A DNA stretch of 40,477 bases from Escherichia phage P694. Positions 1 to 12,880 of this stretch are shown here, piece by piece. The stretch lies in the sequence record NC_028863.1. One strand, written 5' to 3'. Both the position numbers and the translations under genes were made by a program. Positions within the stretch are counted from its first letter, which is position 1, and each line of letters opens with the position of its first letter. The notes beneath the pieces are model-generated. The model did no database searches. It was not told the origin of the DNA and saw only the letters and a list, made by a program, of their open reading frames with translations.

Positions 1-172
1 CCCTGAGTGGTATCCCCACAATGGTAGCTATCAAGAACTTACTGTAGGCTCCGGTCACGTATGTACTGGTATCGTTCTGAACACTGGTGGCGTGTGCTCT
101 GGTATGCAACACCGGGGTATGTGGATTGGGTATCACAACGGCGCGCAACGTCAGGTTGCCTCTATTGGATAA
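1..172 (+). CDS. 17: Tail fibre protein, 3' end only (exact duplicate of 40249..40420)
   Basis: Bases 1..229 are identical to 40249..40477; the reading frame continues from the gene 17 ORF and stops at TAA 170..172. Confidence 0.85.
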   Translation, partial: PEWYPHNGSYQELTVGSGHVCTGIVLNTGGVCSGMQHRGMWIGYHNGAQRQVASIG

Positions 173-229
173 GGAGACATTATTATGAAGATTTACAAAG
201 GATGGAAGTACACTGTGGTTACTGATAAG
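1..229. repeat. Terminal overlap of the window with itself (1..229 = 40249..40477), indicating a circularised or concatemer-derived assembly
   Basis: Exact 229-bp identity between the window start and end, read directly. Confidence 0.9.
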
Positions 230-562
230 GATACCGGAATCTCCACTTACGACATCTTTAATGAAGACGGTATCGACTGGTATAAGATGATGGTCGAACT
301 GGACGACCGAGACCTTAAGTGGGTCATCGGGGTTAAAGATGGCTTCGTCAATTGGGCTACCACTAAGTCGGTCAACGGGATGAACTCCCCAGCCGATGGT
401 GGCATATTGATTCTAACAGATGACTTCCCGTTCCCTGAGAACACTTTCGGTGTTCGATTTGATGGTGAGAAGTTTTATAAAGAAGAACCAGTGGTTCGAA
501 CCAAAGCAGACATCGAGGCAGACCTTCTAAGGCTCATGGCTGAGTTGAAATCCATAAGCTAA
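185..562 (+). CDS. Hypothetical 125-aa protein between tail fibre and holin; no T7 counterpart I recognise; candidate tail-fibre-associated or host-range accessory protein
   Basis: ATG at 185 preceded by AAGGAGA 171..177; clean ORF in a tightly packed operon; position immediately after gene 17. Confidence 0.6.
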   Translation: MKIYKGWKYTVVTDKDTGISTYDIFNEDGIDWYKMMVELDDRDLKWVIGVKDGFVNWATTKSVNGMNSPADGGILILTDDFPFPENTFGVRFDGEKFYKEEPVVRTKADIEADLLRLMAELKSIS

Positions 563-574
563 TAGGAGGTTATT

Positions 575-781
575 ATGTTGTCTTTAGACTTCAACAATGA
601 AGTTGTTAAGGCGGCTCCGATTGTAGGGACAGGGGTAGCCGATGGTGCTGCCCGACTGTTCTTCGGACTGTCACTTAACGAGTGGTTCTATGTAGCCGCA
701 ATTGCCTACACAGTGGCTCAAATTGGTGCCAAGGTAGTCGATGTGATTATCAAATGGAAGAAGGAGGGTAAAGATGTCTAA
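575..781 (+). CDS. 17.5: Holin (T7 gp17.5-like, class II)
   Basis: 68 aa starting MLSLDFNNE..., near-identical to my recollection of T7 gp17.5; RBS AGGAGG upstream. Confidence 0.9.
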   Translation: MLSLDFNNEVVKAAPIVGTGVADGAARLFFGLSLNEWFYVAAIAYTVAQIGAKVVDVIIKWKKEGKDV

Positions 782-1043
782 CGATAAGTCCTTAATTCAA
801 TTCCTTGAGATGCTGGACACTGAGATGGCTCAACGTATGCTGAAAGACCTTCAGGATGACGATAAGCGCACACCTCAACTGTACAACGCTATCGGGAAAC
901 TATTAGAGCGCCACAAGTTCCAAGTCTCCAAGTTACAGCCAGACCGTAACATCCTTGGTGGACTGGCAGATGGACTCGAAGAGTACCAGAACCTAGTGGG
1001 TGCTGATGGTCTCACTGAAGATGAGAAGTACACACTGAATTGA
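774..1043 (+). CDS. 18: Terminase small subunit (DNA maturation protein A)
   Basis: 89 aa, same length and high similarity to T7 gp18 as recalled; start overlaps the holin stop. Confidence 0.9.
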   Translation: MSNDKSLIQFLEMLDTEMAQRMLKDLQDDDKRTPQLYNAIGKLLERHKFQVSKLQPDRNILGGLADGLEEYQNLVGADGLTEDEKYTLN

Positions 1044-1046
1044 TAG

Positions 1047-1095
1047 AATAACTCAAGGCCACTACATCTAGTGGTCTTTATGATATTTTATCACA
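1047..1095 (+). promoter_or_regulatory. RNase III processing-site-like hairpin (R18.5-like)
   Basis: Motif aactcaagg-hairpin-ctttatgat shared with the other intergenic hairpins at 5081, 5619, 6216, 7985, 11695 and 18561. Confidence 0.5.
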
Positions 1096-1141
1096 ACTCA
1101 CGGCGACTGTGCGTGAAATCTGGAAATATGGGAGGGTAGTT

Positions 1142-1588
1142 ATGCTCAAGAATTTAAAGAGATACGCCATAATCGCTGCGTTTGCCTTGGGAATTACCCT
1201 TGCGTACAACCACGGCTATGACAAGGCTAACACTAAATGGGAACAGGAGGTGCACAATGAGTACGTTAAGAAAGTTGAGGCGACTGCGGATAAACAGGCT
1301 GCTCTCAATGAAGTCTCACGACAATACCAAGAAGACCTTGCGGCGCTGGAAGGCAGCACTGATAGGGTCATTAATGATTTGCGTAACGATGGTAAGCGGC
1401 TGCGCGTCAAACTATCAGCCACCTCACGAGAACTCCAAGCTAACGGTGGATGCCTCGTTGATGGTCGAGCCGAACTTGACGAAGAGTTTAGTAAGCGTCT
1501 TATCGGAGTAACTCAAAGAGGGGATGCGTGGATTCGTGCGCTCCAAGATACAATCAAAGAAATGCAAACTAAGAAGGAGGCTAAGTAA
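1142..1588 (+). CDS. 18.5: Rz-like i-spanin (T7 gp18.5-like)
   Basis: Internal ATG 1142 with GGGAGG RBS; N-terminal membrane anchor; similarity to T7 gp18.5 ([12 protein letters not shown]... motif). Confidence 0.85.
1257..1511 (+). CDS. 18.7: Rz1-like o-spanin lipoprotein, embedded in the +1 frame of gene 18.5
   Basis: ATG 1257 with GGAGG RBS; lipobox-like ...[10 protein letters not shown]; C-terminal SLMVEPNLT as in T7 gp18.7. Confidence 0.8.
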   Translation: MSTLRKLRRLRINRLLSMKSHDNTKKTLRRWKAALIGSLMICVTMVSGCASNYQPPHENSKLTVDASLMVEPNLTKSLVSVLSE

Positions 1589-3348
1589 TGTCACAATCCC
1601 AAGAAGCTAAGAATGCGTTAATCATTGCGCAACTTAAGGGTGATTTTGTTGCTTTCTTATTCGTCTTATGGAAGGCTCTGAACTTACCTAAACCAACCAA
1701 GTGTCAGATTGATATGGCACGTACACTCGCTAATGGTGACCACAAGAAGTTTATCCTTCAGGCGTTCCGTGGTATCGGCAAGTCCTTTATCACCTGTGCG
1801 TTCGTTGTGTGGGTCTTATGGCGTGATCCTCAACTTAAGGTGCTCATCGTGTCTGCCTCTAAGGAACGTGCTGACGCTAACTCCATCTTCATCAAGAACA
1901 TCATTGACCTGCTGCCATTCCTCGCTGAGTTAAAACCTCGACCGGGACAGCGTGACTCTGTGATTAGCTTCGACGTTGGCTTGGCGAAACCCGACCACTC
2001 ACCCTCTGTGAAGTCTGTGGGTATCACTGGTCAGTTAACTGGTAGCCGTGCTGACATCATCATTGCAGATGACGTTGAGGTTCCCGGCAATAGCTCTACG
2101 AGTTCGGCCCGTGAGAAGCTCTGGACGTTGGTAACTGAGTTTGCTGCGTTACTTAAGCCACTGCCTACCTCTCGTGTTATCTACCTTGGCACACCTCAAA
2201 CCGAGATGACGCTCTACAAGGAACTTGAGGATAACAAAGGGTACAGCACTGTAATCTGGCCTGCACAGTATCCACGTAATGACGCTGAGGCTCTCTACTA
2301 TGGGGACCGCTTGGCTCCGATGCTTAAGGCTGAATACGATGAAGGCTTTGAGTTACTTCGTGGTCAACCTACTGACCCTATTCGATTCGATATGGATGAC
2401 CTCCGTGAACGTGAACTCGAATATGGCAAAGCTGGCTACACGCTTCAGTTCATGCTTAACCCGAACCTTAGTGATGCCGAGAAGTACCCGCTACGACTCC
2501 GTGACGCTATCGTGTGCGCTGTGGACCCTGAACGTGCCCCATTGTCTTACCAGTGGTTGCCGAACCGTCAGAACCGCAATGAGGAACTCCCTAACGTTGG
2601 TCTGAAGGGTGATGACATCCATGCGTTCCATACGTGCTCTTCTCGTACCGCTGAGTATCAGTCTAAGATTCTGGTCATTGACCCAAGTGGTCGTGGTAAG
2701 GATGAGACCGGGTATGCAGTCCTGTACTCACTTAACGGTTATATCTACTTGATGGAAGTCGGTGGGTTCCGTGGTGGTTACGATGATGCTACCCTAGAGA
2801 AGCTCGCTAAGAAGGCCAAGCAGTGGAAGGTACAGACAGTCGTCCACGAGTCCAACTTCGGTGATGGTATGTTCGGTAAGATTTTCTCTCCGATTCTCCT
2901 GAAGCACCACAAGTGTGCCTTAGAGGAAATCCGTGCTAAAGGCATGAAGGAGGTGCGAATCTGCGATACTATCGAACCATTGATGGGTGCGCACAAGCTG
3001 GTCATTCGTGATGAGGTTATCCGTGAGGACTACCAGACTGCTCGTGACCTTGATGGGAAACATGATGTTCGCTACAGTGCGTTCTATCAGATGACCCGTA
3101 TGACCCGTGAGCGAGGCGCTGTGGCACACGATGACCGACTTGATGCTATCGCATTGGGTATCGAGTTCCTGCGTGAAGGGATGCTTGTGGACAGCCGTGT
3201 AGGTGAAGAAGAGATGACCCTTGAGTTCCTTGAACACCACATGGAGAAACAGACCATTGGTGGTGATGCTATCCATAGCTACGATGTTGGTGGCGTGGAC
3301 ATCTACTACGAGGACGATGGAGACTCTAGCTGCTTCATTGAGTGGTAA
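1588..3348 (+). CDS. 19: Terminase large subunit (DNA maturation protein B)
   Basis: 586 aa, same length as T7 gp19 with high similarity as recalled; ATG overlaps the 18.5 stop. Confidence 0.95.
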
Positions 3349-3435
3349 TAGATAAGTATGCGGGAAAGGTGCATAGGTAAGCACTTAGTACCGCTACGTT
3401 ACCGTTAAGTAACTTACTGATATACATGAAGAAAT

Positions 3436-3458
3436 TAATACGACTCACTATTGGGAAG
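3436..3458 (+). promoter_or_regulatory. Phage RNAP promoter (phiOR-like)
   Basis: TAATACGACTCACTATTGGGAAGG, one mismatch to the T7 consensus at -1. Confidence 0.8.
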
Positions 3459-3615
3459 GGCACCCTAAGACAACTTAAAGACACTTAAAGACTGCATATG
3501 CAAAGTGCATACTTAGTGACTAACTCTAAGAGACCCTTACAGTGAGGGATGATAGTAATAGTAATTACATCCCCACTATCAGTGTAACCATCAAGTATAA
3601 CAAGGAGGACGCTCT

Positions 3616-3771
3616 ATGCGCTTACTAACCGTGCTCAAGACACTGGCAACGCATCGAGTGACCTATAAATTTCTCGTTGTACTTGCTGCTTCCATTGGTC
3701 TCGCATCTAGTGCTGAACACATCGGTGAACTGGAGACTCTGCTTTGTTCTCTACTCACTTGTGTTCCTTAG
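3616..3771 (+). CDS. 19.5: gp19.5-like small protein
   Basis: 51 aa MRLLTVLKTLATHRVTYKFLVVL..., similar to T7 gp19.5 as recalled; AAGGAGG RBS. Confidence 0.75.
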   Translation: MRLLTVLKTLATHRVTYKFLVVLAASIGLASSAEHIGELETLLCSLLTCVP

Positions 3772-3859
3772 ACTGCTCATCGGCGCTTAATGCGCTCTTA
3801 GTGATTATGGTCGATATACATCTTCCCTATAATCACTGTAAGAAGTCAACTCTAAGAGT

Positions 3860-4300
3860 AACCCTTATGTACCCTCTATGGTCTACAGGGTCTCTTAGGG
3901 TCTCACCTTATGATAGAGCCTCTGTGGTTAACCTTATGAGAGACTTGATGTACCCTTTAAGAATCCTACAGAAAAATCTGAGTGGGTATCTCATAGTTCA
4001 TACACACCGAGTTCCCCCTATGGCCTCCTTCAGTCCCACCCAAAGAGTGCCACCCCTTATGATAACTTATGGTTTACTTAATGTCAATCCTTATGTGAGA
4101 CATTGGGTTAACTCTAGGTGTTACCACTAGATGTGGTGCTTAGAGTGACCTTATGACCACTATATGTAGTCCTCTCTGTGTCCCTATCTGTAATCACCTT
4201 ATGTTTCCTCTTAGAGTTAACACCTTATGTCACCTCTTATTAGCTACGCTAACCTTAATGTTACTCCTTATGGCTGCCTCTCCTTATGTTAACCTTCAGT
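3860..4300. repeat. Array of short dispersed CCTTATG-type repeats in the genome-end region
   Basis: At least 10 copies of (A/C)CCTTATG at irregular spacing (e.g. 3865, 3907, 3932, 4046, 4091, 4151, 4198, 4224, 4268, 4284); analogous to the CCTAAAG repeats at the T7 ends. Confidence 0.7.
3990..4200. repeat. Predicted location of the collapsed direct terminal repeat; physical left end near 3990 (approximate)
   Basis: TCTCATAGTTCATACACACCGAGTTCCCCCTATGG resembles the T7 left terminus TCTCACAGTGTACGGACC...TTCCCCCATAGGG; CTCTCTGTGTCCCTATCTGT (about 4175..4195) matches a T7 terminal-repeat segment. Confidence 0.35.
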
Positions 4301-4366
4301 CGGTGCCTTCAGTCTATAGACACCTATCGTTACCACTCTTAGACCAGCCTTAAAGACCATACAGCT

Positions 4367-4391
4367 AATGCGACTCACTATTGAGAATGGT
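4367..4391 (+). promoter_or_regulatory. Phage RNAP promoter variant (phiOL-like)
   Basis: TAATGCGACTCACTATTGAGAATGG; degenerate relative to the consensus seen elsewhere in the window. Confidence 0.5.
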
Positions 4392-4482
4392 TGTTTATAG
4401 TCTTATTACTATTCCCTTCCTTATAGGCTAACTTAAAGAGACTTAAAGAGACTCTGAGACTACTTAAAGTTTCAACTAGGGG

Positions 4483-4511
4483 TTGACTCTAAGAAACAGC
4501 TGTGAGACTAT
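4483..4511 (+). promoter_or_regulatory. Candidate host sigma70 early promoter (A1-like)
   Basis: TTGACT, 17-bp spacer, GACTAT; position upstream of the early genes as in T7. Confidence 0.45.
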
Positions 4512-4617
4512 AGCAACCGTTGAGAGACACAACGCTACCAACTACCAGACAAGACCGCGAGTTATCTGGTAATGCTGAAGAGTCTCAAGTAGTCATCAAC
4601 CAGACATAAGAAAGTGG

Positions 4618-4646
4618 TTGACTCAACGAAAGAAATAACGTAGTAT
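4618..4646 (+). promoter_or_regulatory. Candidate host sigma70 early promoter (A2-like)
   Basis: TTGACT, 17-bp spacer, TAGTAT. Confidence 0.55.
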
Positions 4647-4712
4647 AGCAGTCGTCAACAACTGGTCGCCCTATGAAACAACATGAGGTGTCACGGTGAC
4701 AAACAAAAGTAG

Positions 4713-4742
4713 TTGACAGGCAGTAAAGTTAAGATGTAAGAT
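4713..4742 (+). promoter_or_regulatory. Candidate host sigma70 early promoter (A3-like)
   Basis: TTGACA, 18-bp spacer, TAAGAT. Confidence 0.55.
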
Positions 4743-4860
4743 GTACGACATGCAGTAAGGGTGTAGGGATAGGAACCGAGAAACCTGCCCGTGACCCGCC
4801 AAGGATAAGGCACTAGCCGTGAGTCGAATTCGGTCACTCATCGCATAAAAGAATAACAGG

Positions 4861-4889
4861 TTGACAGTCTCCTTTAAAAACTGTAAGCT
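4861..4889 (+). promoter_or_regulatory. Candidate additional host sigma70 promoter
   Basis: TTGACA, 17-bp spacer, TAAGCT. Confidence 0.4.
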
Positions 4890-5080
4890 GTACCACATGC
4901 ACTACATAACGTTCTTGTGAGGTCACACACTGAAAGTGACTCGGTGCTAACAAACCTGCACTTAAAGTTCTTTAACAATTTGGTCGTGTAATTCCCTTAC
5001 TGCGGGACAGGTAGTCAAGAACTACGGGGATGACGTGAACGCACAAGCGTTTAACCAGTGATGACGCCGACTGATAGCGA

Positions 5081-5136
5081 TTAACTCAAGGGCGCACATT
5101 AAGTAACAACGTGTGCTCTTTATGATAATCACTAAC
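5081..5136 (+). promoter_or_regulatory. RNase III-like hairpin upstream of the SAM hydrolase gene
   Basis: aactcaagg + hairpin + ctttatgata motif. Confidence 0.5.
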
Positions 5137-5156
5137 ACACATAATGAGGCACTATC

Positions 5157-5615
5157 ATGATTTACACTAACGAACCTGCAAACGTATTCTATGTACTGGT
5201 ATCAGCGTTCCGCTCCAACCTCTGCGATGAAGTCAATATGAGCCGTCATCGTCACATGGTTAACTCACTGCGTAATGCACCACTTGAATACGGTAGCGTT
5301 GAGTCTACAAATTTGACTGGTTGTTATCGAGAGGTTATCGCAAGTGCACCAACTGAGGAACTGACCGTTCGTGTACGCTGTGCTAACAAAGCTCAAGCAA
5401 TAGCGGTTGCACGTCTGGCGTGTAACGAGTTCGAGCAAGATTGTGTATTGGTCTATAAGTCACAGACGCACACGGCTGGCTTAGTGTACGCTCAAGGTAT
5501 TGCTGGCTATAAAGCTGAACGTCTGCCGGGTAGCTTCCAAGAAGTGCCTAAAGGCGCACCGCTTCAAGGTTGCTTCACGATTGATGAGTTCGGTCGCCGC
5601 TGGCAAGTACAGTAA
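5157..5615 (+). CDS. S-adenosylmethionine hydrolase/lyase (T3 gene 0.3-type anti-restriction)
   Basis: 152 aa; very similar to phage T3 SAMase as I recall it (MI.T.EPA.VFYVLVSAFRSNLCDEVNMSRHRHMV ... GCFTIDEFGRRWQVQ). Confidence 0.85.
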   Translation: MIYTNEPANVFYVLVSAFRSNLCDEVNMSRHRHMVNSLRNAPLEYGSVESTNLTGCYREVIASAPTEELTVRVRCANKAQAIAVARLACNEFEQDCVLVYKSQTHTAGLVYAQGIAGYKAERLPGSFQEVPKGAPLQGCFTIDEFGRRWQVQ

Positions 5616-5618
5616 GCG

Positions 5619-5668
5619 ATAAACTCAAGGTCGCTCCACGCGAGTGGCCTTTATGATTATCACTTTAA
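5619..5668 (+). promoter_or_regulatory. RNase III-like hairpin (R0.3-like), near-identical copy 1
   Basis: 49 bp differing at about 3 positions from the copy at 6216..6265. Confidence 0.55.
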
Positions 5669-5697
5669 CCTATACACACACTATGAGGTAACACAAG

Positions 5698-6060
5698 ATG
5701 GCTATGTCTAACATGACTTATAACAACGTTTTCGATCACGCTTACGAAATGCTGAAAGAAAATATCCGTTATGATGACATCCGTGACACTGATGACCTGC
5801 ACGATGCAGTGTACATGGCTGCTGAAATCGCCGTTCCGCACTATTACAGTGACGTTTTCAGCGTAATGGCTAGCGAAGGCATTGACCTTGAGTTCGAGGA
5901 CTCTGGTCTGATGCCGGACACCAAGGACGTAATCCGTATCCTGCAAGCGCGTATCTATGAGCAATTAACGATTGACCTTTGGGAAGACGCTGAGGACTTA
6001 CTGAACGAGTATCTTGAGGAAGTCGAAGAGTCTGAAGAGTACGAGGAGGATGAAGAGTAA
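5698..6060 (+). CDS. ocr: Ocr, DNA-mimic anti-restriction protein (T7 gene 0.3-type)
   Basis: 120 aa, strongly acidic, near-identical to T7 Ocr as recalled ([37 protein letters not shown]...). Confidence 0.95.
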
Positions 6061-6215
6061 TGGCTAACAACACCACGCAATACGGTCTGACCGCTCAAAC
6101 TGTACTGTTTTATAGTGACATGGTGCGCTGTGGCTTTGATTGGTCGCTCGCAATGGACCACCTTAAGGAACTGTACGAAAACAACAAGGCAATAGCCTTG
6201 GAGTCTGCTGAGTAA
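6060..6215 (+). CDS. 0.4: gp0.4-like (T7 FtsZ inhibitor homologue)
   Basis: 51 aa, ...QYGLTAQTVLFYSDMVRCGF.WSLAM..LKELYENNKAIALESAE matches T7 gp0.4 as recalled; ATG overlaps the ocr stop. Below the ORF-track length cutoff. Confidence 0.8.
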   Translation: MANNTTQYGLTAQTVLFYSDMVRCGFDWSLAMDHLKELYENNKAIALESAE

Positions 6216-6260
6216 TAAACCCAAGGTCGCTCCTAGCGAGTGGCCTTTATGATTATCACT
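6216..6260 (+). promoter_or_regulatory. RNase III-like hairpin (R0.5-like), near-identical copy 2
   Basis: Direct repeat of 5621..5669. Confidence 0.55.
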
Positions 6261-6284
6261 TTAACATGCAATAGGACTAACACC

Positions 6285-6485
6285 ATGAGTAAACTTCTGG
6301 CAACATCTAAAATCAAAGGCCAACACACTGTAACACTGCGAGAGTATGATCACGGGGCAATGGGTAGCACCTACGTTGTGCGATACGGTAAACAAGTCAC
6401 ACATTGGGTAAACGAGGTTTTGGCACAGGAGGAGTATCAAGCCTGTATGATACACCAAGCAACATGTGCAGGCTGGAATGACTGA
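6285..6485 (+). CDS. Hypothetical early protein (gene 0.5 position)
   Basis: 66 aa from ATG 6285 with AGGA-like RBS; the upstream in-frame ATG 6240 lies inside the hairpin. Confidence 0.5.
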   Translation: MSKLLATSKIKGQHTVTLREYDHGAMGSTYVVRYGKQVTHWVNEVLAQEEYQACMIHQATCAGWND

Positions 6486-6518
6486 TGACGCTATTTGCAC
6501 TCTATGAGGTAACACCAC

Positions 6519-6716
6519 ATGTTATATACATTTGTTGCACTCGTTTACACTCTAATCGCGCTGTACTTCCTTCGAGACTTCCGCAATGGTCTCAAGGTAC
6601 ACAAGGCTAACTTCTCGCACCTGAAGTATGGCTTTCTACCACGATTCACAGCCCGTGAACGTAACGGGCGCTTTAAGGCTAACAAGGTAGGTATCTTCTA
6701 TGTTGCAACACACTGA
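6519..6716 (+). CDS. Hypothetical early protein with hydrophobic N-terminus (gene 0.6 position)
   Basis: 65 aa; GAGGT RBS; a +1-frame ORF 6700..6864 overlaps its 3' end. Confidence 0.5.
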   Translation: MLYTFVALVYTLIALYFLRDFRNGLKVHKANFSHLKYGFLPRFTARERNGRFKANKVGIFYVATH

Positions 6717-6864
6717 TAGTTTAACTAAGAAAGTTCTGTACACACTGGCATATGGTGCTACCAACAAGACTCTAATGCGATCATTGCACCTGAAGCGGCT
6801 ACCAGCCAGAAAGGTGGCAAAGGCACGTAAAGAAGCGCGTTTAATCCTCAATTCTCTCTCTTAA
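6700..6864 (+). CDS. Small basic ORF (54 aa) overlapping the end of the gene 0.6-like ORF; possible 0.6B-type extension or independent gene
   Basis: ATG 6700 (AAGGTAGG upstream) to TAA 6862..6864; basic tail KRLPARKVAKARKEARL. Confidence 0.3.
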   Translation: MLQHTDSLTKKVLYTLAYGATNKTLMRSLHLKRLPARKVAKARKEARLILNSLS

Positions 6865-6891
6865 AGTCTCAACTAAATAGGACACAATCTA

Positions 6892-7977
6892 ATGAACTAC
6901 ACCGACATTCAGGCACGTCTGGAAATCATCAAGTCTCTACCGCTTAGCGAACTGGACAAGCGCCAGCCTCTTTTGGTCGAACTGGCTGCTGACATCGTGA
7001 ACGGTGAAACGTGCGATGGTAACGCCACCGATGGCTCGAACGGCTTGGAGTATCAGGACTGGTGGCACACATTGGGTGCACTGATGTGTGATGCAGGTTT
7101 CCGCATGTTGGGTAATGGTCACTTTAGTGCGGCATACTCGCATGAACTGTTACCGGGTCGAGTCATCAAGGTTGGCTTTAAGAAAGAGGATTCAGGCGCT
7201 GCATACACTGCATTCTGTAGGATGCACCAAGGCCGAGCGGGTATCCCTAACGTCTATCACGTAGCACGTCATGCAGGTTGCTATACGGTCGTACTGGACC
7301 GCTTAAAAAGCTGTGACGACGATAATGATGACCATGGGGCATACGCTGACATCGCGCGTTGCTTTGTGGAGTCGGATTACTATGACTCAAGCGACTTTGC
7401 ACCGGGTGACTACGAGTTCATCGAGACATGCAAGATGATTCGTGAGTTCTTCAACGGTATTGCATCTTTCGACATGCACAGCGGGAACATTATGTTCGAC
7501 GATAACGATGTTCCGTACATCACTGACCCGGTGAGTTTCTCACATGACCGTGAACGTGAGGACGGTTTCCCTCTGGACCCGGAAGCACTGATTGCCGAGG
7601 TCGAGGCGATAGCTAACGAGCGCATCATTGAACGTTGTCGCAACCGCAAGGCCAAGCGTGACCCTAATGGAACCTTTCAGGTTAACCGCAAGGCCAACAT
7701 GAAACGCCGTAAGTGCAACCGTAAGTTACACGTCAAAGGCATGGCACAGTTTGTTAAAGGTCGCATCGAACGCAGGGCCATTGATAGAAACGAACGCCGT
7801 GCTGAGATGCTCATGGGGTCTGCATGGAATAACTTCTGGTTCCGCAATGGTCCCTCAGCGGCACGCAAGGTTGAACAAGTGAACGGCCTTAAGTGGCAAC
7901 TAGGGGACCGCCTCGCAATCCAAGCGGGTCTCCCTCTGAATATCGACAAGGTACTTGACGCTCAACTGATGGGCTGA
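6892..7977 (+). CDS. 0.7: Ser/Thr protein kinase, host shutoff (T7 gp0.7-like)
   Basis: 361 aa; conserved motifs GNGHFSAAYSH, VIKVGFKKEDSGAAYTAFCRM, FDMHSGNIMF as in T7 gp0.7. Confidence 0.9.
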   Translation: MNYTDIQARLEIIKSLPLSELDKRQPLLVELAADIVNGETCDGNATDGSNGLEYQDWWHTLGALMCDAGFRMLGNGHFSAAYSHELLPGRVIKVGFKKEDSGAAYTAFCRMHQGRAGIPNVYHVARHAGCYTVVLDRLKSCDDDNDDHGAYADIARCFVESDYYDSSDFAPGDYEFIETCKMIREFFNGIASFDMHSGNIMFDDNDVPYITDPVSFSHDREREDGFPLDPEALIAEVEAIANERIIERCRNRKAKRDPNGTFQVNRKANMKRRKCNRKLHVKGMAQFVKGRIERRAIDRNERRAEMLMGSAWNNFWFRNGPSAARKVEQVNGLKWQLGDRLAIQAGLPLNIDKVLDAQLMG

Positions 7978-7984
7978 TAAGGTG

Positions 7985-8028
7985 TATCTTCAAGGTCGGC
8001 ACTGACTGCTGGCCTTTATAGATAAACT
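7985..8028 (+). promoter_or_regulatory. RNase III-like hairpin (R1-like)
   Basis: caaggtcggc...ggcctttatagat motif between the kinase and RNAP genes. Confidence 0.5.
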
Positions 8029-8050
8029 TTCTTAACAACGTGAGGCAACA

Positions 8051-10702
8051 ATGACTAACGTAATCAACGCACCAAAGAACGACTTCTCTGACATCGCTAA
8101 CGCAATCATGCCATACAACATTCTGGCTGACCATTACGGTGCACAGCTTGCAGCTACACAGCTTGAGTTAGAACATGAAGCGCACACTGAAGGCGAGAAG
8201 CGTTTCCTTAAGGCAATGGAACGTCAAATCAAAGCGGGTGAGTTCGGTGATAACGCAGTGGCTAAACCGCTCCTGTCATCTCTCGCACCAAAGTTTATCG
8301 AGGCGTGGAACACTTGGTTCACCGAGGTGGAAGCGAAGCGTGGCAAGCGTCCAGTGGCCTACAATCTGGTACAGAAGGTTGCACCTGAAGCGGCTGCTTT
8401 CATCACACTGAAGGTCACGCTGGCTTGCTTGACGAAAGAAGAGTTTACCAACCTGCAATCGGTCGCCACTAAGATTGGTCGTAGCATTGAAGATGAGTTA
8501 CGTTTCGGACGCATTCGTGATGAAGAAGCGAAACACTTTAAGAATCACGTACAGGAGGCACTGAACAAGCGCGTTGGTATCGTCTACAAGAAAGCATTCA
8601 TGCAAGCCGTAGAAGGCAAGATGTTAGACGCTGGTCAACTGCAAACCAAGTGGACTACATGGACACCTGAAGAATCAATTCACGTTGGTGTGCGCATGTT
8701 GGAACTGCTCATCGGGTCTACTGGTCTCGTTGAGTTACACCGACCGTTTGCTGGTAACGTTGAGAAGGATGGCGAGTACATCCAGTTAACCGAACAATAC
8801 GTTGACCTGTTATCTAAACGTGCTGGTGCACTGGCTGCAATCGCTCCAATGTATCAACCTTGCGTGGTCCCTCCTAAGCCTTGGACGAGTCCGGTCGGTG
8901 GCGGCTATTGGGCTGCTGGTCGCAAGCCTCTCTCTCTGGTTCGAACTGGTTCCAAGAAGGGACTTGAGCGTTACAACGACGTGTACATGCCTGAAGTTTA
9001 CAAGGCGGTGAACATCGCACAGAATACTCCTTGGAAGATTAACAAGAAGGTTCTGGCAGTGGTCAATGAGATTGTGAACTGGAAGCATTGCCCGGTTGAC
9101 GATGTACCTGCTCTCGAACGTGGTGAACTGCCTGTCAAACCTGAAGACATCGACACGAACGAAGCGGCTCTGAAAGCGTGGAAGAAAGCGGCCTCCGCAA
9201 TCTATCGCAAAGAGAAGGCCCGTGTGTCTCGTCGCATGAGCATGGAGTTCATGTTAGGGCAAGCCAACAAGTTCGCACAGTTTAAAGCTATCTGGTTCCC
9301 GATGAACATGGACTGGCGCGGTCGTGTGTATGCTGTACCGATGTTCAACCCGCAAGGCAACGACATGACCAAGGGTCTGTTAACGCTCGCTAAAGGTAAA
9401 CCAATCGGTGTCGATGGGTACTACTGGCTGAAGATTCACGGTGCTAACACTGCTGGCGTGGACAAGGTGGACTTTGCAGAACGCATCAAGTTCATTGAGG
9501 ACAACCACGAGAACATCATGAGCGTTGCGGCTGACCCGATTGCTAACACTTGGTGGGCTGAACAAGACTCTCCGTTCTGCTTCCTCGCGTTCTGCTTCGA
9601 GTATGCTGGCGTTCAACACCACGGTATGAACTACAACTGCTCTCTGCCGCTGGCGTTCGATGGCTCTTGCTCTGGTATTCAGCACTTCTCTGCAATGCTT
9701 CGTGATGAAGTAGGTGGACGCGCTGTTAACCTGATGCCAAGCAAGGAAGTACAAGACATCTACCGCATCGTTGCCGAACGTGTGAACGAAATCCTGAATC
9801 AAGATGTTATCAACGGGACCGACAACGAAGTAGAGACAGTGACCAACAAGGACACAGGCGAAATCACTGAGAAGCTGAAGTTAGGCACGAAGGAACTGGC
9901 TGGTCAATGGCTGGCATACGGTGTAACTCGCAAGGAAACTAAGCGTTCGGTCATGACGTTGGCTTACGGTTCCAAAGAGTACGGCTTCCGTGACCAAGTT
10001 CTTGAGGACACCATTCAGCCAGCTATCGACGATGGCAATGGATTGATGTTCACTCAACCGAACCAAGCTGCTAGCTATATGGCTAAACTGATTTGGAACG
10101 CTGTAACGGTGACTGTGGTCGCAGCGGTTGAAGCGATGAACTGGTTGAAGTCTGCTGCTAAACTTCTGGCTGCTGAAGTCAAGGACAAGAAGACTAAAGA
10201 GGTTCTCCGCAAGCGCTGCGCGGTACATTGGGTAACACCTGATGGCTTCCCTGTGTGGCAGGAGTATCGCAAGGCAGTACAGACTCGTTTGAACCTGATG
10301 TTCTTGGGTCAGATTCGTTTGCAGCCTACTGTGAACACCAACAAGGATAGCGGAATTGACGCACGTAAGCAGGAGTCAGGCATCGCACCTAACTTTGTTC
10401 ACTCAATGGACGGCAGCCACCTGAGAATGACTGTAGTGCGCTCCAATGAGGTCTACGGTGTGGAATCCTTCGCACTGATTCATGACTCCTTTGGTACTAT
10501 CCCTGCTGATGCTGGCAACCTGTTTAAAGCAGTGCGTGAAACGATGGTCAACACTTACGAAGAGAACGATGTACTTGCAGACTTCTATGAACAGTTTGCG
10601 GACCAGTTGCACGAGTCACAGCTTGACAAGATGCCTGAGATGCCAGCTAAAGGCGCTCTCGACCTCCAAGAAATCCTGAAGTCAGACTTTGCGTTTGCCT
10701 AA
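8051..10702 (+). CDS. 1: Single-subunit DNA-directed RNA polymerase
   Basis: 883 aa, same length as T7 RNAP, near-identical over long stretches including the C-terminal ...FAFA. Confidence 0.98.
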   Translation: MTNVINAPKNDFSDIANAIMPYNILADHYGAQLAATQLELEHEAHTEGEKRFLKAMERQIKAGEFGDNAVAKPLLSSLAPKFIEAWNTWFTEVEAKRGKRPVAYNLVQKVAPEAAAFITLKVTLACLTKEEFTNLQSVATKIGRSIEDELRFGRIRDEEAKHFKNHVQEALNKRVGIVYKKAFMQAVEGKMLDAGQLQTKWTTWTPEESIHVGVRMLELLIGSTGLVELHRPFAGNVEKDGEYIQLTEQYVDLLSKRAGALAAIAPMYQPCVVPPKPWTSPVGGGYWAAGRKPLSLVRTGSKKGLERYNDVYMPEVYKAVNIAQNTPWKINKKVLAVVNEIVNWKHCPVDDVPALERGELPVKPEDIDTNEAALKAWKKAASAIYRKEKARVSRRMSMEFMLGQANKFAQFKAIWFPMNMDWRGRVYAVPMFNPQGNDMTKGLLTLAKGKPIGVDGYYWLKIHGANTAGVDKVDFAERIKFIEDNHENIMSVAADPIANTWWAEQDSPFCFLAFCFEYAGVQHHGMNYNCSLPLAFDGSCSGIQHFSAMLRDEVGGRAVNLMPSKEVQDIYRIVAERVNEILNQDVINGTDNEVETVTNKDTGEITEKLKLGTKELAGQWLAYGVTRKETKRSVMTLAYGSKEYGFRDQVLEDTIQPAIDDGNGLMFTQPNQAASYMAKLIWNAVTVTVVAAVEAMNWLKSAAKLLAAEVKDKKTKEVLRKRCAVHWVTPDGFPVWQEYRKAVQTRLNLMFLGQIRLQPTVNTNKDSGIDARKQESGIAPNFVHSMDGSHLRMTVVRSNEVYGVESFALIHDSFGTIPADAGNLFKAVRETMVNTYEENDVLADFYEQFADQLHESQLDKMPEMPAKGALDLQEILKSDFAFA

Positions 10703-10709
10703 CGGAATC

Positions 10710-10731
10710 TAATACGACTCACTATTGGGAG
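10710..10731 (+). promoter_or_regulatory. Phage RNAP promoter (phi1.1A-like); candidate primary replication origin region
   Basis: TAATACGACTCACTATTGGGAG followed by a GCCTTCGGGC hairpin and an AT-rich leader. Confidence 0.8.
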
Positions 10732-10792
10732 CCTTCGGGCTTCCTACACTTTAAGATAACTTTAAGTTCTAACTCTAAGAGGAAACAACATT

Positions 10793-10924
10793 ATGCGTAA
10801 CTTCGAAAAGATGACCAAAAGTTCCAACCGTAACGCTCATGACTTCGAGGCAACTAAGGGTCGCAAGTTTAATAAACCATTACGCACCCGTGCGCATAAA
10901 CGCTGCTGGAAGGAGGCACTCTAA
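10793..10924 (+). CDS. 1.1: gp1.1-like small basic protein, copy A (T7-like allele)
   Basis: 43 aa MRNFEKMTKSSNRNAHDFEATKGRK..., close to T7 gp1.1 as recalled; GAGGAAA RBS. Confidence 0.75.
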   Translation: MRNFEKMTKSSNRNAHDFEATKGRKFNKPLRTRAHKRCWKEAL

Positions 10925-11196
10925 TGGGACGCTTATACAGTGGTAACTTAATAGCATACAAAGACGCTATCGAACGACTTAAAGAAGACCATGATGCAAA
11001 TGTGGTCGTTGAGACTTATCGCTATGAGGACTTCGCACAGCGACGGATGGTCGCCGGAGAGACACTTCGAGTGGTCTTACGGAATGGCTTAATGCTGACC
11101 GCTAAGTGTTTCGAACAGGATGATGCAGACGTTCGCTGTAATGCACAGACTGAATGGCTCCGCAAGGTTCACAGTGATATGAAGCACTGGAAGTAA
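10924..11196 (+). CDS. 1.2: gp1.2-like protein, copy A (divergent allele); dGTPase-inhibitor family
   Basis: 90 aa; shares the N-terminal MGRLYSGNL.A.K and C-terminal ...KHWK with copy B but is divergent in the middle. Confidence 0.7.
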   Translation: MGRLYSGNLIAYKDAIERLKEDHDANVVVETYRYEDFAQRRMVAGETLRVVLRNGLMLTAKCFEQDDADVRCNAQTEWLRKVHSDMKHWK

Positions 11197-11216
11197 TACG
11201 ACTCACTATTGGGGAG
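11194..11216 (+). promoter_or_regulatory. Phage RNAP promoter (phi1.1B-like)
   Basis: TAATACGACTCACTATTGGGGAG followed by a leader near-identical to 10732..10792. Confidence 0.8.
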
Positions 11217-11266
11217 CCTATGGGCTTCCTACACTTTAAGTTCTAACTCTAAGAGGAAACAACATT

Positions 11267-11416
11267 ATGCGTACCAACTTTGAACCAACCACTAAGCGCA
11301 ACAACGTAATCAATGAACATGGTGCTGAATGGCAGGAACGTAAAGACCGCATGAAGAAACGTCACAAGACACAACGTGGCAACTCTGAGAAACGCAACTG
11401 GAAGGAGACAATCTAA
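11267..11416 (+). CDS. gp1.1-like small basic protein, copy B (divergent allele)
   Basis: 49 aa MRTNFEPTTKRNNVINEHGAEWQERKDRMKKRHK...; same leader and RBS as copy A. Confidence 0.65.
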   Translation: MRTNFEPTTKRNNVINEHGAEWQERKDRMKKRHKTQRGNSEKRNWKETI

Positions 11417-11673
11417 TGGGTCGCTTATACGGTGGGAATCTTAGCGCATTCAAGGCCGCTGCTGGTCGAATCTTTAAGCTGGACTTAGTTGTCACATGTG
11501 ATGAATGGTATGAAGCACATATTCGTCTTGAGTGTATCAGGCTGCGCATAGAGGACCGGGATGGTCGCCTTATCGACTCTACTATTTGTAGTCATCATGA
11601 CGAAGACGTTCTCTATAGCACTTGTACCAATTGGCTGAACCGTATGTATGACCAGTTGAAAGACTGGAAGTAA
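11416..11673 (+). CDS. 1.2: gp1.2, inhibitor of host dGTP triphosphohydrolase, copy B (T7-like allele)
   Basis: 85 aa, same length as T7 gp1.2 and very similar as recalled (...CIRLRIEDRDGRLID...HHDEDVLY..CT.WLN.MYDQLKDWK). Confidence 0.85.
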   Translation: MGRLYGGNLSAFKAAAGRIFKLDLVVTCDEWYEAHIRLECIRLRIEDRDGRLIDSTICSHHDEDVLYSTCTNWLNRMYDQLKDWK

Positions 11674-11694
11674 TACGACTCACTATTGCGAGAG
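11671..11694 (+). promoter_or_regulatory. Phage RNAP promoter (phi1.3-like)
   Basis: TAATACGACTCACTATTGCGAGAGG. Confidence 0.7.
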
Positions 11695-11741
11695 GTAAAC
11701 TCAAGGTCATCCGAAAGGTTGGCCTTTGTGATTAACTTTTG
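11695..11741 (+). promoter_or_regulatory. RNase III-like hairpin (R1.3-like)
   Basis: gtaaactcaaggtcatccgaaaggttggcctttgtgattaac. Confidence 0.5.
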
Positions 11742-11781
11742 TTTAAACATTAACCAATAACACACATATAGGAGTTCCACC

Positions 11782-12834
11782 ATGGAAATCACATTTAAGA
11801 CTTCGCCACATAAAGCTGTATCATTCGTTGAGTCTGCCGTTAATAAAGCCCTCGACAAAGCTGGCTACCTGATTGCTGACATTAAATATGATGGCGTTCG
11901 TGGTAACATTGTAGTTGACAATACGGCTGACTCTGCGTGGCTCTCTCGTGTCTCCAAAGAGATTCCTGCTCTGTCACATCTCAACGGGTACGACAAGCGC
12001 TGGGAGATGCTCCTGAAGGATGACCGCTGTATCTTCCCTGATGGATTCATGCTTGATGGTGAACTGATGGTCAAAGGCGTGGACTTTAACACAGGGTCTG
12101 GCTTACTGAGGACCAAGTGGCTCAAGCAGAAGAACTTCATGTACACTGATTGTTCTGAGTGGGGCAAGGACTGTAATGGAAAACCTTTTGAGCTAGACGT
12201 TAAGCGACTCAAGGTTGTTCTCTACGGTGTCATGCCGTTTGACTCTATGGTCTCCGGTGAGACCTACGAAGTGATGAACCTATTAATGCGTGAGCACGTT
12301 AAGGCTATGCTTCCTGTTCTGCGTGAGCACTTCCCTGAAATCGAATGGGACATCTCTGAGAGCTATGAAGTCTACGATATGGTAGAACTGAATGCCCTCT
12401 ATGAGAAAGCCCGTGCCGATGGTCATGAAGGTCTGGTAGTCAAAGACCCTCTGGGCTTCTACATGCGTGGCAAGAAGTCTGGCTACTGGAAGATGAAGCC
12501 TGAGTGTGAAGCTGATGGTGTCATCGTGGGACTCAACTGGGGTACTCCGGGTCTGGCTAATGAAGGTAAAGTGATTGGCTTCGAGGTTCTCCTTGAGTCC
12601 GGTCGCGTAGTCTCCGCTAACAATATCAGCCAAGCGTTGATGGATGAGTTCACCAATAACGTTTTTGATGCTACAAACATCCTAAATGTAAGAACTGAGA
12701 GTGATTGGGTTAACCCTTATCAGGGCTGGCAGTGCCAAGTGGCCTACATGGAACAAACTCCTGACGGTTCTCTGCGTCACCCATCGTTCGCTATGTTCCG
12801 TGGTGTCGAGTCAGACCCAACGGTCAAGATGTAA
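11782..12834 (+). CDS. 1.3: ATP-dependent DNA ligase
   Basis: 350 aa; adenylation motif KYDGVRG near residue 35; overall T7 ligase similarity as recalled. Confidence 0.92.
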   Translation: MEITFKTSPHKAVSFVESAVNKALDKAGYLIADIKYDGVRGNIVVDNTADSAWLSRVSKEIPALSHLNGYDKRWEMLLKDDRCIFPDGFMLDGELMVKGVDFNTGSGLLRTKWLKQKNFMYTDCSEWGKDCNGKPFELDVKRLKVVLYGVMPFDSMVSGETYEVMNLLMREHVKAMLPVLREHFPEIEWDISESYEVYDMVELNALYEKARADGHEGLVVKDPLGFYMRGKKSGYWKMKPECEADGVIVGLNWGTPGLANEGKVIGFEVLLESGRVVSANNISQALMDEFTNNVFDATNILNVRTESDWVNPYQGWQCQVAYMEQTPDGSLRHPSFAMFRGVESDPTVKM

Positions 12835-12844
12835 ACCAACAAAC

Positions 12845-12876
12845 GGTCAGTCCTTAACGGGGCTGGCCTTTTCGCG
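12845..12876 (+). terminator. Candidate intrinsic terminator (early terminator TE-like)
   Basis: GGTCAGTCC / GGGGCTGGCC stem (two G-U pairs) with TTAAC loop, followed by TTTTCGCGTTTC. Confidence 0.45.
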
Positions 12877-12880
12877 TTTC

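Follow-up and report, generated by a model that had tools for sequence, protein, structure and literature searches.

Four TTGAC(T/A) elements stand in tandem in the early region of Escherichia phage P694 (NC_028863.1; the window, as we call the whole stretch of DNA that was analysed, comprises 40,477 nucleotides). The locus raises the questions of whether these elements belong to early promoters for the host RNA polymerase, like A1–A3 of phage T7, whether all four of them work, and why several close relatives possess only three.

Genome layout and the early operon

The window holds the genome of a T7-like phage (genus Berlinvirus) in circularly permuted form. A 24-kb stretch of it is approximately 92% identical to phages pO103, D226, P483 and 285P, with approximately 92% of the stretch aligned. 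The first 440–465 bases of BA14 and of pO103 match the window from position 3989 onward, which places the physical left end of the linear DNA at around 3989. The four promoter sites, designated P1 to P4, sit between the phage-RNA-polymerase promoter phiOL and the genes for S-adenosylmethionine lyase (SAM lyase, or 'SAMase') and Ocr. phiOL (TAATGCGACTCACTATTGAGAAT; plus strand, 4366–4388, predicted +1 at 4383) is located just 5' of the host-promoter array, the same position that phiOL has in T7 and T3. The phage-promoter core, CGACTCACTAT, occurs 12 times in the window with no more than one mismatch (0.8 copies expected), always on the plus strand, and the copy at 4371–4381 is the counterpart of BA14 phiOL (annotated at 353–375).

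The first gene of the early operon (plus strand, 5157–5615) encodes a gene 0.3-type SAM lyase (PF23780, E = 1.3e-40), the protein being 97% identical to that of P483, and the second (plus strand, 5698–6060) encodes the anti-restriction DNA mimic Ocr (PF08684, E = 6.3e-61). The anti-restriction genes that the earlier note on this DNA had placed downstream of the array are thus both present, and P1 lies 674 bp upstream of the lyase ATG (5157), close to the 670 bp given there. The early region has a visible mosaic structure, with an Ocr block that is 92–94% identical to Teseptimavirus phages. An ORF of 361 amino acids (6892–7977), with no Pfam match, occupies the position of the protein kinase gene 0.7 of relatives, and one of 883 amino acids (8051–10702) matches their DNA-directed RNA polymerase; all early ORFs through the RNA polymerase gene (the region up to 10702) are on the plus strand. 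After the ligase gene (11782–12834) there is a TE-type intrinsic terminator (plus strand, 12845–12880; z = -4.1), composed of a 10-bp GC-rich stem and then UUUUCGCGUUUC, where transcription by the host polymerase is predicted to end; in T7, too, TE follows gene 1.3. All four promoters are predicted to feed this single early operon of around 8 kb that ends at TE.

Structure of the four promoter sites

The elements reported in the earlier note at 4483, 4618, 4713 and 4861, in the same orientation and with 17- or 18-nt spacers, are exact in coordinates and spacing. All four sites are on the plus strand. P1 (A1-type, 4483–4519) comprises the -35 hexamer TTGACT (4483–4488), a 17-nt spacer and the -10 hexamer GACTAT (4506–4511), which is preceded by an extended TGn motif (4503–4505), and its predicted +1 is G4519. 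P2 (4618–4654) has TTGACT (4618–4623), a 17-nt spacer and TAGTAT (4641–4646), with a predicted +1 at G4654. P3 (A2-type, 4713–4750) has TTGACA (4713–4718), an 18-nt spacer, TAAGAT (4737–4742) and the discriminator GTACGAC, with a predicted +1 at A4750. P4 (A3-type, 4861–4897) has TTGACA (4861–4866), a 17-nt spacer, TAAGCT (4884–4889) and the discriminator GTACCAC, with a predicted +1 at A4897. P3 and P4 share the 17-nt core TGTAAG(A/C)TGTAC(G/C)ACATGCA.

Compared with the consensus TTGACA/TATAAT separated by 17 ± 1 nt, the four sites match at five or six of the six -35 positions and at three or four of the six -10 positions, and all four -10 hexamers have A as their second and T as their sixth base; P1 retains A at -11 and T at -7. 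The region from -59 to -38 of P4 is 68% A+T, the highest value among the four sites, and an A-rich, UP-like stretch (4838–4859) lies upstream of this promoter. The starts were predicted from homology, that of P1 being taken from the annotated start in T7, 7 nt past the -10 hexamer; they fall 531, 666, 762 and 909 bp from the left end for P1, P2, P3 and P4, respectively. The whole array is rightward, is flanked by phiOL on its left and the first early gene on its right, and lies within the first 1 kb or so of the genome.

Homology to annotated promoters

The Berlinvirus BA14 (EU734171 / NC_011040) carries, in addition to phiOL, four features annotated as 'host RNAP promoter' at 460–496, 595–631, 685–722 and 834–870. 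They correspond one to one to P1–P4, follow phiOL in the same order and share every -35 and -10 hexamer with the window. Sequence divergence in this region is approximately 9%; the sites are spaced by 135, 90 and 149 bp in BA14 and by 135, 95 and 148 bp in the window. The BA14 annotation may itself be predictive, and we found no experimental mapping of 5' ends or initiation for the early promoters of BA14 or any other Berlinvirus in the literature searched.

The likeness to T7 and T3 extends beyond the hexamers. P1 is homologous to T7 A1 including the transcribed start (GAGAGACACAACGC in the window, GAGAGGGACACGGCG in T7). The -10 hexamer and discriminator of P3, TAAGATGTAC(C/G)ACAT, match those of T3 A2 (TAAGATGTACCACATAACGTT), which is the closest match to P3. 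P4 is homologous to A3 of T7 and T3, with the -10 hexamer and discriminator T(A/C)(A/C)G(C/A)TGTACCACATG; the annotated +1 of T7 is the A of ATG, and the start-site context of T7 A3, GTACCACATG, is common to P4. For P2 the likeness beyond the hexamers is weak, consisting of only TCGTCAAC in common with the T3 A1 leader. The earlier note's analogy with T7 A1–A3 is therefore supported by the BA14 annotation and by homology to T7 A1, T3 A2 and A3 of both phages.

In hexamers and spacers, position, homology beyond the hexamers, conservation of the hexamers (see below) and an operon with TE, the array has the sequence-level properties of class I promoters, and P1–P4 are very probably the class I (early) sigma70 promoters of this T7-group phage.

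Conservation and promoter number

Conservation was assessed from an alignment of 10 Berlinviruses and from scans of 30 related loci. Across the 10 Berlinviruses the spacers are variable, whereas the only variable position of the -35 hexamers is position 6 in P1, which is T or A. Both hexamers of P3 are invariant in all 10 phages. The -10 hexamer of P1 is GACTAT in eight of them and TCTAAT or TTTAAT in the other two (S523 and BP12A), and that of P2 is TAGTAT in nine and TAAGCT in P483. The replacements at these swapped -10 hexamers are themselves promoter-like, which is the pattern expected under selection for promoter function.

P1, P2 and P3 are found in every Berlinvirus examined, and P4 alone occurs in some of them but not in others. 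It is present in the window, BA14, D226, P483, 285P and pO103, and absent in Kvp1, FE44, S523, BP12A, LPST144, PYPS50 and ErnstBeyeler, which have three promoters each. The interval missing from the three-promoter phages has both of its ends inside the core shared by P3 and P4, so that these phages carry a single junction promoter, in which the -35 and -10 hexamers of P3 are joined to the leader that follows P4 (GTACGACAT followed directly by AACGTT, or GTACCAC followed directly by GACATAACG). T3 A2 is also the closest match to this junction promoter. As the comparison shows, the three-promoter relatives lost, or never gained, exactly the interval between the P3 and P4 cores, and recombination between the promoters' own cores takes their number from three to four or back.

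Four promoters also occur outside the genus Berlinvirus, for example in the Teseptimavirus UFV01. Serratia phage UFV01 and Escherichia phages pO103, P483, 285P, D226 and nasanit all have four matrix hits (see below) in the same layout, and none of these promoters is annotated in their records. In pO103 and UFV01 the first two promoters are replaced by T3-A1-like or T7-A2-like alleles. Among the public Berlinvirus records, promoters are annotated as four in BA14, three in Berlin and one in Kvp1, and most records have none. The Kvp1 genome paper reported just one host promoter (PMC2579914). However, the matrix scan and the alignment identify three promoters in the Kvp1 sequence, and the biological conclusion drawn in that paper from "only a single promoter" is unsupported by the sequence.

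The conserved island that carries P4

Between P3 and P4 there is an island of 97 bp (plus strand, 4764–4860) that comprises the leader of the P3 transcript and the upstream region of P4. Together with P4 it forms a block of around 133 bp (4764–4896) that is 94–100% identical in four genera, namely Berlinvirus, Teseptimavirus, Kayfunavirus and Przondovirus. Positions 4764–4860 are 94–99% identical in the other genera and 100% identical in the closest Berlinvirus-type metagenome contig; the corresponding values for the -35 hexamer, spacer and -10 hexamer of P4 are 86–94% and 100%. Identity drops sharply at both edges, the sequences just upstream and downstream being only 40–62% identical. The island was found in 43 phage records, all of them at least 93% identical, and it separates the last two promoters in UFV01, pO103, P483, 285P and D226; nasanit has a diverged spacer here. 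It is absent from T7, T3 and the three-promoter Berlinviruses, and in Kvp1, FE44, S523 and BP12A it is missing together with P4. In each genus the island is placed exactly where an A2/A3-type promoter has its start site, and it terminates in a GTACCAC of its own; in its Teseptimavirus carriers the -10 hexamer of P4 is TAAGAT.

The simplest reading of this island is that recombination through the promoter cores has exchanged it as a unit of spacer plus promoter, which fits the visibly mosaic early region exemplified by the Ocr block. It is possible, though doubtful, that the block of around 133 bp is instead a promoter-carrying cassette that spread among the four genera via the core TGTAC(C/G)AC and has stayed near-invariant through a function of its own, such as that of a regulatory leader RNA or of a host-factor docking region that stimulates early transcription or the entry of DNA. 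P4 and the 97-bp island would then be a self-contained element, and its function, residing in a leader RNA made from P3 or in a host-factor region activating P4, would explain the near-identity; we consider this rather unlikely as well. Such a function would account for near-identity across 43 records and four genera that gives way to 40–60% beyond both edges, and for a divergence that is about equal within and between genera. It would also suit the diverged island of nasanit, in which the first half is kept and one compensatory change, G4766/C4790 to C/G, occurs in a predicted hairpin (4766–4790). However, the variable sites of the island show no covariation apart from this change, the RNA folds no better than shuffled sequences (z = -1.0 and +0.35 on the two strands), and an Rfam search of positions 3700–6300 at E ≤ 1 gave no match. 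A scan of IMG/VR for diverged copies yielded eight true copies and seven chance 17-mer hits, and a metagenome scan yielded five near-identical copies; neither added covariation information. Recent horizontal exchange via the repeated promoter cores suffices in an early region with an Ocr block so close to that of Teseptimavirus, and many successful relatives, including T7, T3 and Kvp1, do without the island.

Other origins and contents of the island were also considered and rejected. Neither a search of 5,426 E. coli genomes nor one of the GTDB species genomes found a match that would indicate a host origin or an antisense target. Two minus-strand ORFs (4671–4898 and 4691–4837) that run across P3–P4 were discarded as genes, being deleted in the three-promoter relatives and interrupted in BA14 by a 1-nt indel, which counts against coding in the island. 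In the nasanit record the equivalent minus-strand ORFs carry the label 'hypothetical protein'. A nine-codon ORF (4820–4849) keeps its start (GTG or ATG) across genera and loses its stop in EG1, and was left as unsupported.

Promoter scores and chance occurrence

Promoter scoring, proposed as a check in the earlier note, was done with a strict consensus scan and with a hexamer/spacer matrix. The strict scan passes only P2 and P3; P1 and P4 fail, each having a -10 match of 3/6. The matrix is approximate, being built from frequencies in published E. coli promoter compilations, and ranks P1, P2, P3 and P4 28th, 6th, 5th and 7th, respectively, among around 81,000 positions on both strands. As a positive control it finds the annotated A1–A3 promoters of T7 and of T3 and the leftward A0 promoters. 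The four sites score 9.85–11.96, compared with 11.2–12.5 for T7 A1–A3 with the same matrix. P1 has the lowest score (9.85), and P4 (11.5) is level with P2 and P3.

It could be supposed that only a subset of the sites is functional in vivo, for example that P2 and P3 work and that P1, P4 or both are weak or silent relics. The failure of P1 (GACTAT) and P4 (TAAGCT) in the strict scan, the low matrix score of P1 and the natural dispensability of P4 in the seven three-promoter phages would agree with this, but we think it quite improbable. P1 keeps A at -11, T at -7 and the extended TGn motif, and it is the homologue of T7 A1, whose own -10 hexamer, GATACT, is poor. P4 has a perfect -35 hexamer, the optimal 17-nt spacer and the A-rich upstream stretch, has TAAGAT as its -10 hexamer in the Teseptimavirus carriers of the island, and is the most conserved of the four promoters across genera. 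The earlier note had supposed that the fourth promoter has a weaker -10 hexamer and may be minor. This part of its account did not hold, since the -10 match of P4 equals that of P1, its score is that of P2 and P3, and it is 86–94% conserved; as judged from these features, P4 is not evidently minor.

Sequence statistics by themselves are modest (P of around 0.01), and homology is the decisive evidence. The strict scan found 11 sigma70-like sites in positions 1–12000, against 13.8 expected in shuffled sequences, and such sites are enriched neither in the region nor in the genome overall. TTGACW occurs 15 times on the plus strand of the whole window, with four of the 15 within 400 bp (P of around 0.005 under random placement). 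At least four distinct same-strand matrix hits that scored no lower than the weakest site and lay within 420 bp were obtained in 10 of 1000 dinucleotide shuffles, a soft figure because the threshold was set after the sites had been seen. That the four sites are functionless chance combinations of TTGACW with a loose -10 hexamer, as the equal frequency of loose sigma70-like matches in shuffled and real sequence might suggest, is effectively refuted by the comparative data, namely the clustering of the sites on one strand, their exact homology in position and sequence to annotated promoters of BA14, T7 and T3, and the conservation of their hexamers while spacers and flanks change.

The transcribed leader

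The transcripts of all four promoters would contain an RNA hairpin (plus strand, 4921–4941) with a 6-bp stem and the invariant loop ACACUGAAA, which was found in 33 loci, including T7 and T3. In an alignment of 17 distinct sequences from several genera, 86% of the cells pair, compared with 24–40% when the partner is slid, and four of the six pairs have changed on both sides (21 cells). The hairpin is not the minimum-energy fold in the window sequence alone; its support is covariation only.

Around 25 nt 3' of the hairpin there is an rrn-type boxA-like element, GTTCTTTAACAA (plus strand, 4967–4978). This leader element resembles the E. coli rrn boxA consensus, UGCUCUUUAACAA. It agrees with GCUCUUUAACAA at 11 of 12 positions, and the elements of T7, T3, BA14 and most relatives do so at all 12; the element of the window is one base off the canonical GCTCTTTAACAA of BA14, T7 and T3. 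In these phages boxA has the same relative position (813 in T7, 781 in T3 and 939 in BA14). A hairpin upstream of boxA gives the window the boxB-boxA layout of the rrn type, and antitermination of this kind is known from rrn and from lambda. The combination of boxA and hairpin suggests, by this analogy, that the host polymerase may be made termination-resistant for the early unit of around 8 kb. We found no discussion of the T7 boxA in the literature searched.

Further downstream, before the first gene, a putative RNase III processing hairpin of the R0.3 type (plus strand, 5079–5130; z = -4.2) folds as the same interrupted hairpin as the annotated R0.3 of T3. A second RNase III-type hairpin (plus strand, 5616–5662; z = -4.0), located before the Ocr gene, is also R0.3-like.

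Proposed course of early transcription and DNA entry

Our preferred reading, in which P1–P4 are all class I promoters, leads to the following scheme. The leading 0.9 kb or so of the linear genome, from the left end at around 3989, would enter the cell as in T7. The sigma70 RNA polymerase of E. coli would then bind the tandem promoters and start at 4519, 4654, 4750 and 4897. Rightward transcription would pass through the common leader with its covarying hairpin, boxA (where elongation probably becomes termination-resistant) and RNase III site, and would continue through the genes for SAM lyase, Ocr, protein kinase, phage RNA polymerase and ligase to TE at around 12845–12880. As in T7, this transcription would both express the anti-restriction and takeover genes and pull the next 8 kb or so of DNA into the cell. 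Initiation itself, the relative strengths of P1–P4, the role of boxA and transcription-driven DNA entry are what we infer here by analogy.

In T7, gp16 clamps the genome at approximately 850 bp until E. coli RNA polymerase binds the promoters and translocates the DNA by transcription (PMC8954989). With predicted starts 531–909 bp from the left end, the T7 entry mechanism is plausible here. The predicted start of P4, at 909 bp, is slightly beyond the 850 bp or so that T7 brings in without transcription, so that firing of an upstream promoter might be needed before P4 becomes accessible.

Comparison with known systems

Early promoters set the speed at which anti-restriction and takeover genes are expressed, and in T7 they also govern genome entry, so that their correct annotation matters for engineering and host-range work. 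The four sites described here are already known, in that the same four are annotated in BA14, and their biology is that of textbook T7. Two points go slightly further than the textbook. P4 is gained or lost through recombination, a small but clean case of a regulatory element changing in copy number within phage mosaicism, and the island in which it lies is nearly invariant.

BA14 has the same promoter array as the window, but no Ocr gene follows its SAM lyase gene, and around 55 bp of leader corresponding to positions 4985–5060 of the window are missing. T3 (NC_003298) has A1, A2 and A3 in the same layout, with SAM lyase as its first gene, but it has three promoters only and lacks both the island and Ocr. 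In T7 (NC_001604), A1, A2 and A3 start at 498, 626 and 750, in tandem and rightward between phiOL and gene 0.3, and the last promoter is followed, as in the window, by a leader with the hairpin, boxA and R0.3. However, T7 has three promoters rather than four, lacks the island at 4764–4860 and has Ocr alone as its first gene.

Host-type promoters of the left end

Scanning both strands of the whole window with an approximate sigma70 hexamer/spacer matrix yielded 29 distinct sigma70-like matches, compared with 34.4 ± 5.9 in dinucleotide shuffles; such matches are thus, if anything, rarer than in shuffled sequence, and the promoter cluster at the left end is conspicuous against this non-enriched background. 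The top match of the window (11/12, matrix rank 1) is a leftward site at 4087–4059 on the minus strand (TTGACA, 17 nt, TATCAT), which lies within the terminal repeat around 99 bp from the left end, and is the counterpart of the promoter that the T7 and T3 records label 'A0 (leftward)'. BA14, Kvp1, pO103, LPST144, FE44 and SH3 all keep a site of this type at a distance of 96–102 bp from the end, in each case without annotation.

The genome paper on Kluyvera phage Kvp1 reports a single host promoter and regards this as a major point of contrast with T3 and T7 (PMC2579914), and the GenBank record likewise carries one host promoter. The Kvp1 sequence itself contains three promoters at around 450–780, homologous to P1 and P2 (–35 elements starting at 4483 and 4618 in P694) and to the junction promoter of P3/P4 type (P3 and P4 of P694 have their –35 elements at 4713 and 4861), respectively.

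Away from the left end, a further sigma70-like site (7955–7983; TTGACG, 17 nt, TAAGGT, with TG upstream; matrix rank 14) was recognized just upstream of the phage RNA polymerase gene (8051), a position resembling that of the T7 minor promoter C.

A near-invariant island upstream of P4

The noncoding island together with P4 (4764–4896) shows 94–100% identity across 43 phage records belonging to four genera, with flanks that are just 40–60% identical. This near-invariant segment is bounded by a repeated promoter core, TGTAC(C/G)AC, and is missing in T7, T3 and the three-promoter Berlinviruses. Its near-invariance may reflect a function of its own, or mere horizontal exchange.

Two minus-strand ORFs (75 and 48 amino acids, within 4671–4898) overlap P3, the island and P4, and their equivalents are called hypothetical proteins in the record of phage nasanit (L029, 923–1574). 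We rejected them as genes: they are deleted in the three-promoter relatives and frameshifted in BA14, and are therefore very probably annotation artefacts.

Mosaic early region and leader RNA elements

A T3-type SAM lyase gene and a T7-type Ocr gene are arranged in tandem at 5157–6060, and both genes are also present in phage A7. A stretch at around 5615–6500 that takes in the Ocr gene shows 92–94% identity to the Teseptimavirus phages HZ2R8, EG1 and CICC 80001 and is missing from most Berlinviruses, which makes the early region, as judged from these comparisons, a mosaic. The SAM lyase gene is flanked by two RNase III-type processing hairpins (5079–5130, z = –4.2; 5616–5662, z = –4.0), both shaped like the annotated R0.3 site of T3.

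The P1–P2 interval as a whole is better conserved among Berlinviruses than the stretch upstream of P1. Alignment and predicted folding revealed a hairpin, UACCAGA...UCUGGUA, at 4543–4571 in the leader of P1 transcripts, with two compensatory double changes (U-A to C-G and C-G to U-A) that separate the window/Kvp1 type from the BA14/D226/P483/285P type in the Berlinvirus alignment. Farther along, a covarying hairpin at 4921–4941, whose loop ACACUGAAA is invariant, is followed downstream by an rrn-type boxA (GTTCTTTAACAA) at 4967–4978. The covarying hairpin and boxA suggest that the early unit may be subject to Nus-dependent antitermination, and the same pair is common to the window, T7 (boxA at 813), T3 (boxA at 781) and 30 other loci.
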